A stretch of DNA of 64,000 nucleotides from Octopus vulgaris (taxonomy: Eukaryota). Shown piece by piece: positions 9,263 through 57,700 of the stretch; positions within the stretch are counted from its first letter, which is position 1; every line of letters begins with the position of its first letter. The translations under genes and the position numbers were made by a program. The stretch spans positions 69,378,001 to 69,442,000 of the forward strand of contig OX597823.1 in the NCBI GenBank assembly GCA_951406725.2, in the 5' to 3' direction. The notes beneath the pieces were generated by a model that had not been told where the DNA came from, searched no databases, and worked only from the letters and a program-made list of their open reading frames with translations.

Positions 9263-12200
9263 TTTATTCTCATTATTTCGAACTAATACATACAGAGTGA
9301 GCCTTGAAGAAAGGAAGAGGAGGAAAAAGGAAAAAAAAATGTTCGGAGATAAAACTATCAACAAAAAAAATACAGACGAATATAGATCTGCTAGTCTTAA
9401 AAAGCTGCTCTATGAGCAATGCTTACATGTAGAGAACCCTAAACTGACAGATCCATCTCCTAATATAAGAATGGATGCTCGTCATGCTTCAAGGTCAACA
9501 AATCAAACAATAAACCGCATTGGTCGTTGCGCGGATTACAAAAGACCACGTACCCGAAAATTGAACCAAATTCTGATTGAAAAATCAGCTACTGGATCAA
9601 ATCTTCCCAACACACAGGAGCTGGACGTACCCCACAACCGGAATATTCCAACAGATGGCCATCCATGCTCATCACAAAATAATCAAAAGAAAAAGAAGGA
9701 AAAATGGTCTAGGGAAGATAATAAAGAAGTTCTTGAGGCCTTCTACCATGCCATATATTTCCCCACAGATAAGTCTAGCACTGTACAAGCATACTTAAAC
9801 TGGAGACAGAAACACCCTTGCCAACGTCAGAAGAAACATTATAAAAAAAAATTACTGACTGAAGAAGAGATTGATCAGGTTAGACAAGCAATATCGGATA
9901 AAATGAACGAAGCTGCAGCTAGAGAAGATAATACAGAGGAAATAATTATAGACCAGCCCAGGGCTGATAAAAACGAAGTGAGGATTGAAAGAGTTAGTAT
10001 AAGTGATAGGCAAAGTGAAATACTCCCTGAACCAATCATAAACACTAAGACAAATGAGCATCAAATAGATAAAGAAAGTCACACAAATATTGACCCAACA
10101 GAACTACATGAGCTAAAAAATCAAATCATGATTGAATGGCTGAAAATTAAAGAAACCAGCATGGATGAACGTGATACACTTCCTAAAATCCGCAACTCTA
10201 ACCAAAACATGAAAATAATTGGTAAAATCCGGCTTGCACTTAAGGATATAATTTCAGCTAATGATGTTGATATCACAAACATCAACCACCTATACTATGC
10301 ATCCGCGAAAATCTCAACGATCCTATGTGGTGTAAAGATTAGAAAACGGCAACATTCCCACATAAAGCCTTCTTGGCAAGAGCGTCTGCAACAACAAATT
10401 AAAATATTTAGATCTGACATTGAATATTTGAAAAACCTTAAGGCTCACAAGACTACCAAACCTACAAAAACCCCAAAATTACTGAAAAAATACAATATGA
10501 AAACTATACTTGATATTGATGCCACCATAGAAACCATCAAACAAAAGGTATCTGCCAAAGCTGCCCGCATAGCGAGGTATGAAAAGCGTGTTAGATTTTT
10601 CAAGGACAACAACATGTTAAAAAATAACACCAAGAATTTTTACAGGAAGATATGAAAAACAGCGTTTACTGCAAGGTCTGTACCATCAAAAGAAGAAGTG
10701 CAGGGATTTTGGAATAAAATCTGGGCAGAAGAAAAAACACACAACGAAAAGGCCCCCTGGATTGACAGAATATCTACAGAACTGGACCCCTTAGAAGAGC
10801 AAAAGTGGGAGGGTGTCAAGGTAGAAGATATAAGATCTGCTCTCAGGAGGTCAAGCAAATGGAAGTCTCCAGGAAAGGATAAAATTCCTAACTTCTGGCT
10901 GAATGCCTTCCCAGAGAGCCATGAACTGCTAACAGAACTGTACAATGATGTTTTGCAACACCCTAGTAGGATGCCTCCTTGGCTAGTTAATGGGTTAACA
11001 TTCCTGCTTCCAAAAAGTGAAGAAACAAATGAACCAAAAAACTATAGACCCATAACCTGCTTAACAACTATGTACAAAACACTAACATCTGTCCTGACGG
11101 AATATACCTATAGTTTTTTAACAGACAGCAGCATATTCCCTAATGAACAGAAAGGATGTAAACGTGGATCCTACGGCTGTAAAGACCAACTACTCATCAA
11201 TAAGATGATCTTAGAAGATTGTCACAAACGACACAAAAACTTATCAATAGCCTGGATAGACTATAAAAAGGCTTTTGATAGCCTACCACATAGCTGGATT
11301 AGGAAATGCCTGGAAATGTATAAGATAGCACCTACTCTGCGAAACTTCTTGACTGTAAGTATGAGGTCATGGAGAACCACACTAACTCTGAACAGTGACA
11401 ATGAATCCCTAAATGCTGGTGATGTAAAAATTTCGTGTGGTATTTTCCAGGGTGACTCACTGTCACCACTCCTCTTTTTTTATCCTTAATACCTCTCTCA
11501 AAGCTGCTCAATGACGCGCAGTACGGGTATAAAATGTTTGATAAAAATATAAATCATCTCATTTACATGGATGATTTAAAGCTTTTTGCAAAATATGACC
11601 AACAACTCAAGGGCTTACTAGCGATAGTCAAACAATTCAGTGACGACATCAGAATGCAATTCGGCCTCGATAAATGTGCAAAGGCTACCTTTATCAAAGG
11701 AAAAATGACAGAAACATCTAACGTTAACCTTGACCAGCAGAATGTCATAAAAGAACTAGACCCAGCGGAGAGCTACAAGTACCTAGGGGTAATTGAAGGG
11801 AACGGAATAAGGCATTCAGAGATGAAGGAAAGGATCAGGAGAGAATGCTATCGAAGAGTGAGAGCAATACTCAAGACAGAGCTGAATGCAAGAAACAGGA
11901 TCGAAGCGATCAATGCATTAGCCATACCAGTCGTGACTTACAGTTTCAATATTGTTAACTGGTCAATTACTGAAATATGTCAGCTCGACAGAAAAATAAG
12001 GAAACTGTTGACAATGCATAGAATGCACCACCCTAAGGCAGATACAGAACGACTCTATCTGCCAAGAAAAGAGGGAGGCCGTGGTCTTTTGCAACTGGCA
12101 ATAACAATGAAGATTGCTACAATTGGCCTAGACACCTACCTGAAAAACTCTGAGGACTGGATGTTAAAACTTGTCTCAAAACATGAAAACAAGAAAGCAT

Positions 12201-42704: not shown

Positions 42705-43490
42705 GTTACTTTATGGCCACACAGGGCTGAACACAGAGAGGACAAAATACAAAGTAGAGCTTTTCTTTTTGGGAAGAAGAGAAAAAAAGTGGGTCGAATT
42801 CCGATCAAAAGGGATCGTTTAAAAAAAAGGTGGGGACGATCAATAGGGATTGAGTATCACAGAAATGTCAATGGAAAAATGGAAAACGGATTAGGTTTAT
42901 CCGTGGAATGAAAAACATACGGAAAAGACCACGGGAACCTTTGGCAATAGTGTCATGCAAAAAAACACATTACTTAAGTGGATCTCTTTTTTCCTTTCTT
43001 TTTTTTTGCTTTTTGGTTCATAGAATTATGCTCAAGTTGGCTCCGTCATTCACACGTGCCATCCTTGCTACATTCACCCATCTTTTTTTGAAAAATTCAC
43101 TAGACAAAACTTCCCTCTCTACTCTCACCTTCCTCTTCAAGTGATACTTGAAGAAGTTGATGATAGATTCACCAGAGAGGAAAGTGTTTCTCTCTAGACC
43201 TTTCAGGCGCATCCACCATACACATTCATTCGCCATAGCCTCAAGTACGATGTAAATGGCTCTTCATGCCCGTTTGAAGGAAAAAGGCACGACAATATAT
43301 TCACGAAAGACTTGGTTGATAAACTGACTCGTCGCACACGCGATAGCAGTCGTTCGACATAGGCCCATAGGCCGGAAATGGTTGGACACTGCACGAGTGC
43401 ATGCAGAACTGTTTCGTCGCTCTGATCTCATCTCGGGTAGGTCGGCTCCGTGTTTCTAAAGCTGTGTTTGCCGAGTTTATCCCGAGCGGG
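42705..43490 (-). mobile_element. L1/Tx1-clade LINE 3' fragment with 3' UTR
   Basis: DETVLHALVQCP..LWAYVERLL..VWWMRLKG..HLKRKVRVEREVLS..FKKRWV; tail tttgtcctctctgtgttcagccctgtgtggccataaag. Confidence 0.82.
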
Positions 43491-43499
43491 TTGCACTTG

Positions 43500-43800
43500 T
43501 ATTTATTCTATCAGTCACAGTTGCCGAACTGCTAAATTTCGGGGACGTAAACAGTAAAACCGGTTAAGTAGTGATGCGGAACGAGCATAGACACAAAGGT
43601 ATACACTCACACAAACACACGCACATACATACAAACACACACATATATATACATCTACAACGGGCTTCATCTAGTTTCCGTCTACCAAATCCACATACAA
43701 GGCTTTGTTTGGCTCGAGGCTATGCTAGAAGACACTTGCCCAATGTGTTAGGCAGTGGGATTGAACCTGGAACCATGTGGCTAAGAAGCAAGCTTCTTTA
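43500..43800 (-). mobile_element. Bipartite SINE
   Basis: Reverse complement of the modules at 4895-5310. Confidence 0.7.
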
Positions 43801-43924
43801 TTTTATGAAATATGCCATAAAGGCAGTACACAGATGGGACGAAGAAGGACAGACAAGCACAAAGGGTGAAGAAGTTGCTTTTAGTTAAAAATTAATGTTC
43901 GTATGAATGATATGATTACAGACG

Positions 43925-44960
43925 TAATTTTAAAATTTATTTATATAAATATTGTTGCAAAAAGGAACAATTTGCCTCGGAAGGAAAGGAATCCAGCCAT
44001 CTGGGTAGAACCTTTGCTGCCTACCACCGACGCCACTTACCTGGTGCCGGTCACTCTCAACCTGCTTGCTACCAGCTTCCATCTTTTTACAAATGTACTT
44101 AGCGACAGGCACATCTTCTCCAGCCTGATCTTATTAGCTGGTCGCTAAAAAAGTTTACCAACCCCTGCCGGAGACGAAGGTACCTGTCAATATCCGTCTT
44201 ACAAGCGTCTTCCATACTGTTTCTTCCAGTCGGCTACTACGCAGAAAAAAAAACAAGCCTTCCTTTCCCTGTTAAGGGAGGGAGGCGGCACAATCTCGAC
44301 GATAGACTCAGCCGATTATTGTACTCTTCCCATCGATGACAACAGTTGTTCTGCGAAAACTATCAGTCCCTTTAATACCGGACACTCCTCAAATGCGTGC
44401 AAGACGGTTTCCCTTTCTTGCCCGCACCTCGGACATGTCGGCGAGACGGCACTTCCGTGCCTTGACAGTTTGTCTCGAACAAGTAACGCCGCACGGGAGC
44501 ACTGCTAAGCCAGGGATTTCTGGTAATTATGCAGATACCTCGGCCCGAACGTTCTCGTGAACAGGTTGATCAACTGATTTTCATCGTAGCCCAATGTCTC
44601 CCCCAAGACATCTTCGGACATAAAGCCCTCTAACTCGCTATAAATATCCACAGTGGTACTCCTGCTGCCGGCATTGCCCGCCCGAGAGAGTAACTGAAGT
44701 GCTTGACGGCACTCCAATTGCCAGCCTCCCAGCCTAGGTCTCTGCTTGACCCATGCTCCAATTTCCGTTAAGGACGTTAAATGCGGAAGGTAGAACCGGA
44801 CGTGCGGTGACTACACCTGCTTCCCATCCAGGTAAAGCCAGAGGTGCCTCAACCTAAACGCGAGTTTTCGCATCTTCAGCCAAGGCATCCCTAACCCAGC
44901 CGTTAGCAGTTTCTGGCAGCAGACAGCGCTTCACAAGCGGCTTTCCTCCCTTCCACCAAA
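43925..44960 (-). mobile_element. Second L1/Tx1-clade 3' fragment (degraded)
   Basis: GC-rich; ends KIRLEKMCLSLSTFVKRWKLVA, paralleling the C-terminus at 43018. Confidence 0.68.
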
Positions 44961-44962
44961 AG

Positions 44963-45736
44963 CGGAAAGCTCGATAAATGGGTACCTTATGAGCTCAATG
45001 AAAATCAAAAAGTTCGGTCTTTTAATGTGTGCCCGATGCTCTTTCTGCGAAACACCAATGATCTCTTTTTTGACCGAATCATCACTTGTGATGAAAAGTG
45101 GATCCTTTATGATAACCTTAAACGATCAGGTCAATGGCTTGATCGTGAGGAGTCCACCAAACTTTTCCCAAAGCCAAAGTTGCATCAGCAAAAGATTATG
45201 GTGACTGTCTGGTGGTCTACAAATAGTGTTGTCCATTAAAGCTTTCTGGAATCCAATCAGAGCATTACGGCAGAGGTTTACTGCAACCAGTTCGCTGAAA
45301 TACATGCTCACTCGCAAAAAATGAGATCTGCATTGATGAATCGACGTGGCCCAATTCTGCTCCACGATAATTGACAGCTACATGTTGCAAGAATGACGCT
45401 GCAGAAACTCACAGACTTGGGATACGAGACTTTACCACATCCTTCATATTCTCCTGATCTTTCACCCACTGACTACCATTTTTTAAAGCATTTAATCATG
45501 TTTTTAAGTGATAAAACTTTCAAGTTTAAACCAGAGGTGGAATTAGCTTTTGAAGATTTCTTAGCATCAAAGCCAATAAGTTTTTATCAACGTGGCATAA
45601 ATAATCTCGTTGATCGATGGCAGAGATACATAGATGATCACGACTCATACTTTGACTAATCAAAACATTTCTATTGTTAATTTTTCCAGAATAAAATTAT
45701 GTTTCTGAAATCGACCATTATTTTCGGAACAACCTA
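44963..45736 (+). mobile_element. 5'-truncated mariner transposase pseudogene
   Basis: KLDKWVPYEL, IITCDEKWILYDN, KIMVTVWW, LLHDN, HPSYSPDLSPTDYHF; right end cattattttcggaacaacctaa. Confidence 0.92.
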
Positions 45737-48393: not shown

Positions 48394-48809
48394 TATTTCT
48401 TTACTGCCCACAGGGGGCTACAGGCAGAGGGGACAAACAAGGACAGACAAACGGTTTAAGTCGATTATATTGATCTCAGTGAGTAACTGGTACTTAGCTA
48501 ATCGACCACGAAAGGATGAAAGGCAAAGTCGACCTCGGCGGAATTTGAACTCAGAACGTAGCGGCAGATGTAATACCTATTTTTTTACTACCCACAAGGG
48601 GCTAAACACAGAGAACAAACAAGGACTGACAAACGGATTAAGTCGATTATATCGACCTCCAGTGCGTAATTGATACTTACTTAATCGACCCCGAAAGTAT
48701 GAAAGGCAAAGTCGACCTCGACGGAATTTGAACTCAGAACGTAAAGGCAGACGAAATACGGCTACACATTTCGCCCGGCGTGCTTAACGTTTCTGCCAGC
48801 TCGCTGCCT
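48394..48809 (-). mobile_element. Tandem SINE dimer inside one 18-bp target-site duplication
   Basis: TSD tgtttaatggtctattct at 48376-48393 and 48810-48827. Confidence 0.88.
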
Positions 48810-51074: not shown

Positions 51075-51692
51075 TAAATGGATATAGATATATAAATCAG
51101 TTCTATAGTTGTTATTATCGTCGAGCCTCACCACACTATCTCTGTCTCTTTCTCTTTCTCTCTATCTCCCCACGCACACATACACACCCACATTAATTAA
51201 CTGCGAGAAAACAGGATAAGAAAAAAGTCATTCATGAGAATGCGAAATTAATATACAGAACTTAACAAAAACAATTCGGACTCGTGAAAATAAACTGAAA
51301 TACTAAATCAGTAAATCCTTTGAGGATCGGGATTAAAAACAAAACATAAGAAACAAGATAAAACAAAAGAAGAATATCCAAAACAATAAACTGTAGCAAA
51401 ATTTTCATAGACAGACGATTCGAAAAACCATTTAAGCAATGCATACGGGAAGGGCTTAGTCAATACCATGGAGCCCAGTACTTAAGAGCTACTTGTTTTA
51501 TCAGTTCTGAAAGGATGAAAGGTTAAATTGATCCAGGCGGTATTTAAAATCACGGAGCAGAAAGTTTATTAAATATAAATGAAAAGAGTGAACCAAATTA
51601 AAATAATACATAAATAAGATAGCGTTATATTTCGGGATGGTCTTTTTAAAAAATTATTTGCCAAAAATACACACAAACTTAAATAAGATAAG

Positions 51693-52050
51693 CAATATTC
51701 GTAGCCACTTTAACATGGCTGTCCGTTCGAGCAGACTCTACTAGGATATTTTAACTCCGAGAGGACATCTCTTCTAGCTTGTTAACGATGCACAGCTGCA
51801 TCCGATAAAATTGTGAGCAAGGGAGCGATCTTCTACCATCTCATAGCGACGGGGACCAGTAGATCAGTCCTGGTTTCTGCTATTTCTGCCATTCCTCAGA
51901 TGTGCATCGTTAACCAGCTAGAAGAGATGTCCTCTTGGGGTTACAAAATCGCAGTAGAGTCCGCTCGAACGGACAACCATGTTAAAGGGGCTACGAATAT
52001 TACTTGTCAGTACAACTACTGCGTTGATCTCTTAGAGAAATTTTAGAACA
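51693..52050. repeat. Inverted plus direct partial copies of the hammerhead-bearing repeat unit
   Basis: ~51693-51898 is the reverse complement of ~54009-54215; ~51897-52050 is a direct copy of ~54110-54262. Confidence 0.88.
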
Positions 52051-52092
52051 AGCATTTTTGCTTATTGAAAAATCAGCGACTGTGTGCTCGCT

Positions 52093-52159
<67 letters not shown>

Positions 52160-52164
52160 TATTG

Positions 52165-53980
52165 CGTGCAGAGTGAGCTGCTATAATCTCTATCAGACTC
52201 GGTTTTTGTTGTTTTTTGAAGAATTCGAAGCGAGATTTTTGTGCGAAGCCAACATTGTTGGGTGGAAGTGAATAATGGAAGAAAAGAAGAGTTATGCGGA
52301 AGCTACTGGAGGTCGAGATACCCTGGACCCACGTGTCCTGAAGCCGAAGAGAATGGCATGGAATGAAGTAAAGGTAGCAACATATGGCATGATAAAAAAA
52401 AGAAGGGTCATACATAAAAATGACACTGCCAGAGGAGGAAAAAAGAAAATTTCAAAGCAGGACGGTGATATTCAGAACATTTTCGAATGAAAATAGGTGA
52501 ATAGATCACGCGCCGTAGGAAGAGATAGAGGAAATATTGACGGAACGAATGGGTGAAAGAATAACTTTCTTTGCAAGAGGAAGGAATACGCGACTATAAT
52601 AGTCACCTTTGCATCAGAAGAGGAGGCGAAAATGAACGACAACAGACAGATACTGGAAGAGAATTGGACGTTGATGCCGAACTGTTTGCGCAAAAGAATC
52701 GTCAGGGTCAGGGTGGGAAGAATCCCACCGTCCATAGACCCAGAATGGGTAATAGTTGTTGGTGAAGGGAAGTGAAAACCTGAACATTTGCATAATAAGC
52801 AGAACTCAACAATTGAATTGCTGGGGATATGGTATTGAAGTAATTTGTGCAGCAAGCTCAGAATATTACGAGGAAATGGCAGAAACTGTGAAATTACCAA
52901 ACGGTGAAAAACTGGAAGTAATGTTGGTGGGGAGACCCCTCAAAATGTTATGGATACAGTGAAAGGGGGCACCGGAGAAGGAAATGCCCTAGAGCAGCAG
53001 TATAAATGGTGGAAGAGACTATTTAGGCAGATATAGTGGTGGAAAAAAACAGAGGCAGAGGACAGAAATTGATGGGAATTTGGCAGAGGGAAAACCCAGG
53101 AAAAGAGAGTGAAGAAAGTCATCAACGACAGTGAAAGTAAAGAAGTGTAAAGGAATGGAAGAAGAAACTCAACCCACGACGAGAAACGGAGAAAATTTAC
53201 CAGTGGAAGTACCAGCAATTGAATCAAAAGGACAGAGTCATGCAGACAAGTAACAAGACAACCCGGAATTACGGAAACCTAAAGACAGACACACAGACGA
53301 AACACAATGAACACAAATGAACACACAGACACACAAATACAAGAACAAACAGACACACAAATACACGAACACGCAGACTTAGAGACGGAAATACAAGAAC
53401 CCATAAAACAGCAGGAAAATAGAAACAAAAAGAGACAACAGGAAAAGCACAAACGAAAAGAAAAATTATAGTGAGATAGGACGCCCCAACTTAAAAGGAA
53501 TGCAAAATTGAAAGACAATATGAGAGATAGAAGTGGTAAGTCATTGTAAATTTGTAAAGACTGTAACTGAGAGAAATGATTGTTTGAAATTTTTAGGGAA
53601 AATAGGAAAAAAAATAAAGTTTTGAAACTGTTGAAAGAACAGGTTTCCAAAAGTTTTTTTTCTGAACACTGTGATAAACTTTAGTTCTCTTTTAGTTTTA
53701 AAAAACGAAAAGAAATAATTAAGGACTGTATGAACATTTATTATGTTAGGGTGAAAGCGAAGAGGGAAGTCGCGGTTTCGCCCCGAAGTGAGGCTAAAGG
53801 TTGTGTAAAACTTAATGGTAAAGGAATACACGGTTTCATCTCGCAGCGGGAGCGAGATGGCCGGCTCATTTACATTGTAAATATATTCATTTCACATTCA
53901 TCATCCTTCATATGTTTTATGTTCCCGCATGTCTTTGTATGTCCCCTCTGTAATTAGGCCTTATACCTGTAATAAAGAAT
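52165..53980 (+). mobile_element. ORF1/gag-only non-autonomous retroelement (Tx1-like tail), decayed
   Basis: MEEKKSYAEA start at 52275; IVTFASEEEA..RVRVGRIPP; knuckle C-YG-Y-SERG-H-RRRK-C at 52946-52987; no EN/RT recognised; tail ttgtatgtcccctctgtaattaggcc..aataaag. Confidence 0.7.
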
Positions 53981-54002
53981 TAATCTCTAGCAGACGAGGT
54001 GT

Positions 54003-54053
54003 CCAGTACTGAGGAGTGGCAGAAATAGCCCGAAACCAGAACTGGTCTACTGG
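54003..54053 (+). ncRNA. Canonical type I hammerhead ribozyme
   Basis: ccagta CTGAGGA gtggc-agaaata-gccc GAAA ccag-aa-ctgg TC tactgg; perfect 6-bp stem I; predicted cut after GUC at 54047. Confidence 0.9.
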
Positions 54054-54317
54054 TCCCGTCACTAGTAGATGGTAGGGGTTCGCTTCCCTGTTCACAATTT
54101 TATTGGATGCAGCTGTGCATCGTAAACCAGCTAGAAAATATGTCCTCTTGGGGTTAAAAAAATCGCAGTAGAGTCCGCTCGAATGAATAACCATGTTAAA
54201 ATGCTACGCATATTACTTGTCAGTACAACTACTGCGTTGATATCTTAGAGAGATTTTAAAACTAGTAAATAAGATTCCTAAAATTATAAAACTGGAAATT
54301 TTCCAACTGAAATATAG

Positions 54318-54865: not shown

Positions 54866-55829
54866 TAAATGTTATAGAAAACCGGAGAACACTATCTGGA
54901 TCTCACTGTAGAATACGAATTTTTGGGTAAAACATTGTAGTAAGCGCATAAAAGCTTGTCATAAACATAAAGAGAATCCAATAAACCATCCAAATGGATT
55001 CCATGAACATTTTACGCATAGTCATACAATGTTGCTACTACCTTCTGCCAAGAAGAACATTTCTAATTAGTGACCAATTAATATGTCTCATAAAATGCAA
55101 CGAACTCTCCGTCATCTATGGGAAGGCGGATTCATTCTGACTTATTTAAAAATAAGCACAGTTGCTCCCCATAGGGCACAAAGTGCAGCATACAGTTATC
55201 TCAAATAACATTTAAATACTCATTTAATGCTCTCAGAATCCTGGTCAAGTGTCTTCTACTATAACCTTTGGAGTATTGTAGAAGGAAACATCACGGTATT
55301 CGGTTTGGTTAAATAAATGCATAACTAACTAACTAAATAGTAAATAGCACGCACAAATATAAAAACTTATGAAGCACACATACTTGTGTACTAACATACG
55401 CCCACATGCGACAAATGCAAATTTATCCGCACGCACATTCATATTCATGGCACATGCACACGTACATATATTCATACATGATAGACATAAGCTTTGAGTG
55501 ATAGTAGTTAGCTCTGTAAAAGGCTATTAGATTAGAGTTAATGAGGTTAAATAGAGAAATAATGTTAGAGAATTCTAGAGTAGTGAGTAAGCTAATGAGA
55601 AAATTAGAATACTTGCTTAAGAAAGCAATTACGACTAACGTGCTGGCAACAAAGTTGCCAACAACTGACAAGATACGGGAAGCGATGGCTAACTGTACAA
55701 GGGAGAAATAGCTGAAGCTGAATGCAAGATTTCTTTGATTATGCAAGACATTTGTTAGTCTATTAGCAGATGCCTGCTGCAACTGGTAGTAGAACAGGAG
55801 AATTCTCAATCCTACGGAAACAGGTACAG

Positions 55830-57700
55830 TAGTACTGCTGAGAAAAGATCCGAACATGAATATAGTGGTTTAAACAACTTGAAATCCGCAACTCTGCTAA
55901 ATGCAGTTGAAAAGGTTGGCTAAGATATTAGCTATGTGAGTGGTGCTTGTCGTTGACACACTGGTAGGTGAGACACGATCATGTCCCATACTAAGCAGAT
56001 CTATCCGCGACAAATTCCTCCTCACACGATACATTATAGAAAGGTTAGGTAAAATATCTGTCTGGCATAGGTGGGATGCTGATTAACTTAGATCAATCGA
56101 AAGGGTCGACTATCAATACTTCGCAGCTGTCTTCGAGCTAGTTTCGGATCCAGTTTTGGAAACCTGGATCGCAGCGAAGTACGGTGACACTTCCTCGGAA
56201 GTCATAGTAAATGTTCACCTATCAGAACCACTCAGAATCATACGTTCGGTCCATCAAAGCTACACCTTCTGTCGCTTTCTGTACATAGTAATCCTGGGGC
56301 CACAAATGCAGATGTTGGGTGTCTCAATGATCATCCTGTGAAACTAGGATACGGAAGATCCGTATTAGCACATGCGTGCGACGTTGCCGTAATAGTGTCG
56401 AGCACCAAATACACGGAGGTGATCGGTATTATGCTAATCGGAATATGAGGCGGTGATAAGAGCAGAAATTAATTAGATGTTACATGCAGTTCCACACCTG
56501 GCGCGACAGATCCATGTCATTGAACAGCGTCATGGTGTCCTGGATGGCTGGACCGGTAAATTCCTCGGCATTCTGTTCGGTCCAGATCGTTAGATAGGAA
56601 CTGGAAAGAGGTGACGAGCAGGATGGCGTCTCACACCCAGAAATAGCCCGCTTCATGGCTGATTAAAATGAAGTGCTACTTCTCTCGCTTTCTGTGAAGC
56701 GGACGCGTTTCGCTGGTCAGACTGTCTATTTACTATTAACATCCGCTGGAGGACTGCGCATACTATGTCTAATGATGCATGGAATGCGCTGAAGCTACGA
56801 CATCTCCAGCGTTTCATTAACAGTGAGCAGGCGTAGTTGTCGTTTGCTACACACGTTTGTCCGTAACTCGTCTTTTGACTGAGCTGCAGTCCCTAAACTA
56901 AGCGTAGACCGAGGCAGAGCATCTGAAATCTAGTGTGTCATCGGGACACTCATAGCCACCCTCAGCTTGTAGGTCTATGATGTTGGTGGATGCTCCACTC
57001 TGGCATTCTATAAAAGATTATGTGTTGGGGAGTGCAACGAATGCCTAATTTTTTCCAGAAGCCTTTTAGGTCCTAACCCATGGATAATTTCCACAAATAC
57101 ATGGCTTGGTAGTGTTACCAAAGAGCATTGCCGATTCGGGAAAAAAACTCTACAGGTGTATCAGTACCAGCAGCAACCCCTACTCGAGATGCACAAAGAG
57201 CGATGAACCTGTCCTGAAAGCGCTTATCCAGTGCTCGAGCATTGCTGATGTAATGCCGAATAGCTGTTTTCACGTGCAGGATGCACCCGGTTATACGCCG
57301 ACTCCATCGTAAAGATTACATGCCTGCCTTTTTTTTATTAGGAAATACAGGCAGTTTTCGTCTGCCTGGAAGCTAATGCAAAATAGGTTGTATACTAGAC
57401 GCGTCTGAATTGAAGACAGACGTTTCCCTTCAAGAGAAAAGTGAGGACCGAGAGAGGATGAATGTAGTAAGAATAGTCGGAGTGAATTGACCTGTAGATA
57501 GAAAGATACAATGGAGAAAGGAGTAGATAATGCAATATAGTTATCAGGATGTCTCAAAATATACGGGGTTCCCTCACGGCCTCTATTACGGCGTTTCTGC
57601 CCTAGTTATAGTTCTCTTGACAATTATCTTTGTTTTAGTTTGCACGTATTTATGTAACTGCCTACTGTCTTTTGCCTCTTGTTCTAAATGCTTTTTCTTA
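55830..57700 (+). pseudogene. Highly degraded L1/Tx1-clade RT region
   Basis: Broken motifs INLDQSK..RVDYQY, decayed SVRQG-like and AYADDV-like segments, C-terminal DE.VL..LIQC, paralleling 43203-43430. Confidence 0.7.

Follow-up and report, generated by a model that had tools for sequence, protein, structure and literature searches.

A window of 64,000 nucleotides from Octopus vulgaris (assembly GCA_951406725.2, contig OX597823.1, positions 69,378,001 to 69,442,000 of the forward strand; coordinates below are those of the window) contains two nested elements, a hammerhead repeat of ~370 bp and, interrupting it, a 1.78-kb LINE derivative that codes for ORF1 only (Table 1). The derivative sits at a site used by its whole family and by autonomous relatives, including position +1 of U1 and U2 genes, and comparison of these copies makes it likely that the elements home to snRNA-type promoters and are transcribed from them.

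The nested locus

Empty hammerhead units elsewhere in the genome have a 371-bp monomer that passes through a short TA run into the leader preceding the hammerhead; the LINE derivative therefore interrupts one unit. An earlier sequence-only reading of the window had set the unit at ~270 bp, short of its true length of ~370 bp, and had considered an ORF1-only, Tx1-like derivative that was nested in hammerhead repeats and had landed in the (TA)n tract. The nesting holds and the tract exists, but the tract belongs to the unit itself and is not where the LINE landed. The direct partial copy and the adjacent inverted copy described upstream are also present, the only complete hammerhead being that of the downstream unit; the direct copy has no hammerhead and runs on through the (TA)n to 52185, beyond the 52050 first assigned. 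What that reading overlooked are the inner 18-bp duplication and the outer 10-bp direct repeat. The two inner copies are identical at 15 of 18 positions and end just 5' of the hammerhead, and the 5' copy is closer to the leaders found in sister copies than to its 3' counterpart, which would follow from a donor RNA beginning at the unit leader. The outer repeat, taken with the 5' inversion, looks like the result of the hammerhead unit's own insertion event. The window copy is a fossil, since its ORF1 is broken and the spacing from upstream motif to leader has been stretched to 114 nt, the latter by expansion of the (TA)n.

Table 1. Features of the nested locus, in window coordinates
Feature	Position	Strand	Remark
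Outer 10-bp direct repeat, left copy	51680..51689	+	probably the target-site duplication made when the hammerhead repeat inserted
Inverted partial hammerhead unit (5' inversion)	51690..51898	-	starts at the ribozyme core; stem I has no 5' strand
Direct partial unit, monomer positions ~128-371, including promoter-like end	51897..52185	+	
Motif like the U1/U2 upstream motif (-57 to -60), probable proximal sequence element	52072..52093	+	114 bp from the leader
(TA)n tract	52095..52162	+	expanded form of the unit's normal short TA run
Inner duplication, 5' copy; host-derived leader	52186..52203	+	first base is the putative transcription start
ORF1-only non-autonomous LINE derivative, probably L1/Tx1 group	52204..53982	+	family of at least 119-219 candidate copies
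Decayed ORF1	52275..53471	+	stops and frameshifts; two RRM-like domains (modelled) and CCHC knuckle in relatives
Zinc knuckle	52946..52987	+	second Cys replaced by Tyr in the window copy
AATAAA at the 3' end of the LINE derivative	53971..53976	+	without poly(A) tail
Inner duplication, 3' copy	53983..54000	+	first 18 nt of the unit leader
Type I hammerhead ribozyme (descriptor parse)	54003..54053	+	predicted cleavage 54047/54048
Downstream hammerhead unit	53983..54265	+	end near the family's stereotyped 3' end
Outer 10-bp direct repeat, right copy	54266..54275	+	

The type I hammerhead reported for the downstream unit was recovered by the descriptor parse, with an intact core, six of six stem I pairs and the same predicted cut. 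Rfam returned no hammerhead match in the window and the minimum-energy fold of the isolated motif is no better than those of shuffles (z 0.13), so the call relies on the descriptor fit and on stem pairing across the unit families (designated A, B, C, D and D3 here): stem I covaries, with at least four of five pairs in 20/25 cases compared with 17/5000 random windows. Stem III, for its part, is in many cases a short palindrome.

The hammerhead unit has at least 1,421 candidate copies in the 2.8-Gb genome, most of them solitary. The monomers, of 371 bp and 355 bp, are non-coding and show partial tandems, stereotyped 3' ends and 5' inversions; they place a type I hammerhead in a non-coding tandem unit within the 150-450 bp range of non-LTR retrozymes. 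Type I hammerheads, short or palindromic stem III, partial tandems, stereotyped 3' ends and 5' inversions likewise appear in published descriptions of non-LTR retrozymes and Penelope pLTR derivatives (in portions of PMC7229834 and bioRxiv 10.64898/2026.07.22.740005). On its sequence the hammerhead repeat is of the non-LTR retrozyme type, with predicted ribozyme activity; unlike described retrozymes, the octopus units have, upstream, a motif like that of U1 and U2 and are targets of LINEs, and no linked RT was found. The units probably spread by a route of their own, of the Penelope type. In two small samples, no ORF with RT and GIY-YIG domains lay beside 29 A or 30 D unit loci, and no hammerhead unit appeared as a flanking repeat of 40 GIY-YIG loci. 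A family with a 781-aa GIY-YIG ORF was considered as the autonomous partner of the unit and set aside, no link between the two being found. It is a young high-copy family (L296-L304) with an ORF of ~479 aa followed by the 781-aa ORF, which ends in the GIY-YIG domain, and the descriptor finds no hammerhead in it. Head-to-head arrays of hammerhead units with the same inversion breakpoints were seen at different loci (L127/L128, L200/L204 and L203).

The ORF1-only family and its autonomous relatives

At least 119 candidate copies were obtained with the ORF region, of which 40 were scored, and at least 219 with the 3' end; the copies share fixed ends corresponding to ~52204 and ~53982. The decayed ORF with a C-X2-Y-X4-H-X4-C knuckle that had been noticed earlier was confirmed, its relatives having CX2CX4HX4C, and no match to RT, endonuclease or any other part of ORF2 was found within 52204-53982, also as first described. 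The poly(A) tail claimed just before the hammerhead unit is not there: the AATAAA is present and a poly(A) run is absent. Other copies of the family also end without poly(A), and their 3' tails resemble those of autonomous families. The family thus codes for ORF1 without ORF2, is discrete and amplified, and has a LINE-type 3' end, in the manner of HAL1. In relatives, modelling resolves ORF1 into two RRM-like domains and a knuckle; the model has a pLDDT of 70 and matches tandem-RRM structures, ZCCHC3-like clusters match ORF1 at 0.88-0.91, and zf-CCHC falls under the Pfam cut-off. All named homologues of the window ORF are Octopus proteins.

ORF2 fragments adjoining some ORF1-only copies led to a young autonomous family of 5,527 bp with both ORF1 and ORF2. 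Its ORF2 is open over 1,134 aa in L123 and contains APE, RT and zf-RVT domains over the cut-off (PF03372, PF00078 and PF13966), the best solved match being human L1 ORF2p (E 7e-63). Placement of the autonomous relative and the ORF1-only family in the L1/Tx1 group of LINEs is the best reading of these similarities; no named Tx1 reference was returned among the matches, and the Tx1 label is one we assign to the lineage from its architecture. ORF1 of the window family is 22-25% identical to that of the young autonomous family, and several ORF1-only families share the target, with 24-39% protein identity to one another or to autonomous ORF1. Chimeras exist in which an ORF1-type 5' part is joined to autonomous ORF2 pieces (L095, L096 and L091). 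In L099, L100, L165 and L169 a related ORF1-coding element lies reversed inside the ORF1-only element at position ~1409-1427; its recurrence in at least four loci reflects either a second hot spot or one amplified event.

The ORF2 first found nearby, in L097 and L098, was rejected as the autonomous partner, for it belongs to another family located in TATC repeats. This second young APE-RT family (L097:892-3657 and L098:1103-4549) is flanked by TATC repeats, has an ORF2 open over 1,149 aa and is ~58% identical to the promoter-targeting family. More decayed LINE ORF2 fragments are found in the window at 43063-44967 (-), 55511-57181 (+) and 10827-11477 (+). The window also carries, at 48394-48759 (-), two tandem copies of an abundant SINE, presumably similar to the octopus OK SINE, in which the final ~45 nt are similar to the 3' tails of both the ORF1-only element and the TATC-associated LINE; the shared tail suggests that the SINE is mobilised by the same LINE group.

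Target sites in hammerhead units and snRNA genes

Among 40 distinct 3' ends of the ORF1-only family, a hammerhead core follows 25, in 23 cases at 27-28 nt, against a null rate of 36/2000. The leader plus another copy of the ORF1-only element follows seven further ends, and the leader plus a related element follows four, so that 36 of the 40 lie at a hammerhead leader or a tandem LINE. The remaining four have no recognisable core: in one an internal duplication precedes a hammerhead, another has just the leader, the third a degenerate unit, and the fourth is off target. The host units fall in at least three diverged families (A, B and C). Target specificity, duplications and 5' truncation are found together, as expected for elements of the Tx1 type, in which duplications span ~15-23 bp. 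The sequence-only reading had entertained a landing between two units; the adjacency is not fortuitous, the site being a fixed target used across the whole family, nor are the two parts adjacent only here, the window's unit family lying directly downstream in 4/30 ORF loci, window included.

The autonomous family uses the same sites. Its 30 best 3'-end loci continue into a hammerhead unit (19), a leader and another LINE (three), U2 from its first base (four), a U2 leader and a second copy (one) or other DNA (two), one locus having no 3' end; U2 genes were identified by Rfam. A pattern search for the LINE tail joined to U2 gave 10 matches and none for the reversed control, and the six matches inspected are five LINE ends, one of them from an ORF1-only family, and one ordinary promoter. 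Other ORF1-only families occupy these target sites too. The only U1 insertion found, L174, belongs to an older relative and is 5'-truncated; it sits at +1 of a U1 gene, whose promoter lies upstream, and shows a loss of ~10 nt and no duplication. The full-length copies in U2 consist of the promoter, U2 positions 1-14, a 14-nt leader of the D3 hammerhead-unit type and the LINE body. As this extra leader begins exactly at the unit's leader, the 5' end of the donor RNA would be the unit leader, which is probably the start site of the unit.

A motif starting ATCAG lies 56-62 nt upstream in snRNA genes (U1, 15/16; U2, 12/12) and in the host units (D, 32/36; D3, 6/7; A, 6/13; B, 4/5; C, 2/2), with a null of 479/20000 (2.4%); TA expansion and truncation are common in A units. 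It is absent from all three off-target sites. Apart from an A at +1, the leaders of A, B, C and D units, U2 and U1 have little in common, and the distance from motif to insertion is nearly constant across them. A position ~60 bp upstream of +1, common here to U1 and U2, is that given for the snRNA proximal element in part of PMC4494074. The motif is probably this element, which would imply binding by SNAPc; the label is taken from its position in U1 and U2, since ten U6 loci inspected by eye have no such motif.

Mode of targeting and relation to known systems

We tentatively propose, with rather less than even confidence in the scheme as a whole, that this LINE lineage is an animal equivalent of Ty3, tethered to SNAPc-dependent start sites as Ty3 is to Pol III genes. 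It would insert at +1 of U1, U2 and thousands of mobile retrozyme promoters, capture the promoter, have the target-matching 3' end of its RNA defined by the host hammerhead, support several ORF1-only parasites and at times be carried as a composite by a Penelope-type route. On the reading given at the outset, which we consider likely, the upstream motif would be the SNAPc-bound proximal element, and the first base of the leader the start site of the unit. A LINE copy at +1 would be transcribed from the host promoter into an RNA that starts with 14-18 host nucleotides and closes with host sequence from read-through. The autonomous APE-RT protein would then use target-primed reverse transcription to move the ORF1-only RNA in trans, with one nick no more than ~5 nt from +1 and another at around +14 to +18, and the older window family would likewise have had a partner in trans. 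A promoter-bound factor together with short homology of the RNA's host-derived ends to the target may direct the insertion. The resulting duplication should keep the host RNA sequence whole downstream but severed from its promoter, which would drive the LINE; in repeat units, read-through RNA could be trimmed by the hammerhead located ~65 nt downstream, and the units would be a source of promoters scattered in their thousands. Relatives of the family are covered by contigs from four possibly-RNA runs; as contigs do not show RNA ends, strand or level, they carry no weight here.

A promoter-bound tether combined with short homology is mildly preferred by us over recognition of sequence alone. 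In the latter case the same nested, target-specific insertion would be guided by the endonuclease and by pairing of the RNA ends, and the link to promoters would reflect which copies get transcribed and survive, an account that we consider possible though on balance doubtful. The off-target sites favour sequence recognition, since they lack the motif and one of the three, L076, has a duplication resembling the B leader. The donor leader in the U2 copies matches the first 14 nt of U2 at nine positions, and Tx1 specificity is usually ascribed to the endonuclease (as put in part of PMC4494074). LINE subfamilies also cluster with host subfamilies, with six changes against a shuffled mean of 11.9. 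Against recognition by sequence alone stand the unlike leaders, A at +1 aside, at a near-constant distance from the motif, and the use of such unlike leaders by copies that are 99% identical.

A further alternative is one composite, retrozyme-like element in which a unit with an ORF1 passenger is cut by hammerheads, circularised and copied by a Penelope-type RT. The sequence-only reading had offered such a single, ribozyme-processed, chaperone-coding element as one origin, which now appears improbable. None of 29 other copies of the unit carries the ORF element within 1.5 kb, and the ORF element also occurs in several unit families, in tandem and off target, with relatives in U1 and U2 genes. 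LINE copies ~99% identical are found in U2, in unit D, and in unit D3, which is itself 70-73% like D. At a palindromic locus the LINE arms differ by two substitutions in 5.5 kb and the whole arms by 16, so the LINEs are younger than their hosts. A tree was built from the 17 copies whose alignment covered 1 kb or more, leaving out the other 23 ends as shorter or unlabelled; on it host labels require six changes against a minimum of two, and one clade per host is rejected (p-AU 4e-8, 9e-8 and 0.016). The 5'-truncated on-target copies L073, L250 and L260 retain the host promoter and leader upstream, as L174 does in the U1 gene, and the off-target copies L076, L238 and L266 have duplications of 15-18 bp. 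At the level of sequence, the truncated on-target copies and the near-identical copies in unrelated hosts show independent targeting; a composite could not yield U1 and U2 insertions, off-target duplications, tandem LINEs or truncated copies with an intact upstream promoter.

A composite would be consistent with the 5' inversion and outer 10-bp repeat of the window, and with part of a set of 21 loci with truncated or unexamined copies: ~13 have no upstream unit within 6-9 kb, although they do have one downstream, and four abut another inserted repeat. One-sided loss after insertion is common, though, for in roughly 8/29 ORF-query loci it is the 3' end that is missing. L251 and L252 have the same inversion junction, the same internal deletion and the same 3' end, but L252 is indel-rich and may be an assembly duplicate. 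It is possible that the composite is occasionally re-mobilised as a whole, by a route that would be secondary and not the origin. A repeat at several 5' junctions was first taken for a 5' inversion of the parent LINE and is actually a separate element in inverted pairs; it adjoins several truncated copies (L156, L161 and L164-L167) and is probably the end of a non-autonomous DNA transposon. Finally, that a LINE fragment came by chance to lie in a microsatellite flanked by two repeats is very hard to credit even in a genome dense in repeats and (TA)n tracts, given 36 of 40 3' ends at a hammerhead leader or tandem LINE and an insertion point 24 bp beyond the (TA)n.

Each part of the favoured scheme, tethered insertion at snRNA-type start sites, has a precedent: target-specific Tx1 elements, HAL1, retrozymes, the newt satellite 2 promoter, and Ty3 and TRE5-A. 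The site of the Tx1-clade LINE Keno lies inside U2, near +37, unlike the octopus site. Keno and Utopia share a site (according to part of PMC4640811). The Tx1-clade LINEs treated in part of PMC4494074 (Tx1L in Tx1D, Keno in U2 and Tx1-Mar in Mariner-N4) resemble the octopus lineage in having APE-RT, a fixed target in a multicopy RNA gene or transposon, tandem insertion and duplications of about 15-18 bp; the octopus lineage differs in using several unlike targets that share a promoter position, +1 of U2, U1 and hammerhead units. R2 is described there as also promoterless and co-transcribed with its multicopy RNA target, but it has its own 5' HDV-like ribozyme and a restriction-like endonuclease, whereas the octopus ribozyme belongs to the host repeat and lies 3'.

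Ty3 and TRE5-A, as far as they are described, likewise insert position-specifically at or near start sites set by a transcription complex, to which they are tethered via TFIIIB. They differ in element class or target machinery (tRNA genes, TFIIIB), and they neither carry a host leader nor take over the promoter, as we infer for the octopus LINEs. HAL1 (half-L1) is described from mammals and is, to our knowledge, not target-specific. It resembles the octopus family as a non-autonomous LINE derivative coding only ORF1 (in part of PMC5753468), whereas here several ORF1-only families share a target. An snRNA-type promoter has been reported for newt satellite 2 (as cited in part of PMC2220036). No LINE located in retrozymes or at position +1 of an snRNA-type promoter is described in the literature covered, which did not extend to Repbase, to subscription journals or to supplements; the octopus families may already be catalogued there.

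If true, the proposed targeting would add a promoter-defined target class for APE-type LINEs, which are usually credited with an endonuclease sequence preference, and the young element with an intact ORF2 is material for testing it. The LINE insertions would also amount to a footprint left by nature, from which the start site and promoter type of animal retrozymes could be read, a subject on which little is published, and the arrangement would be a case of one selfish RNA parasitising another.
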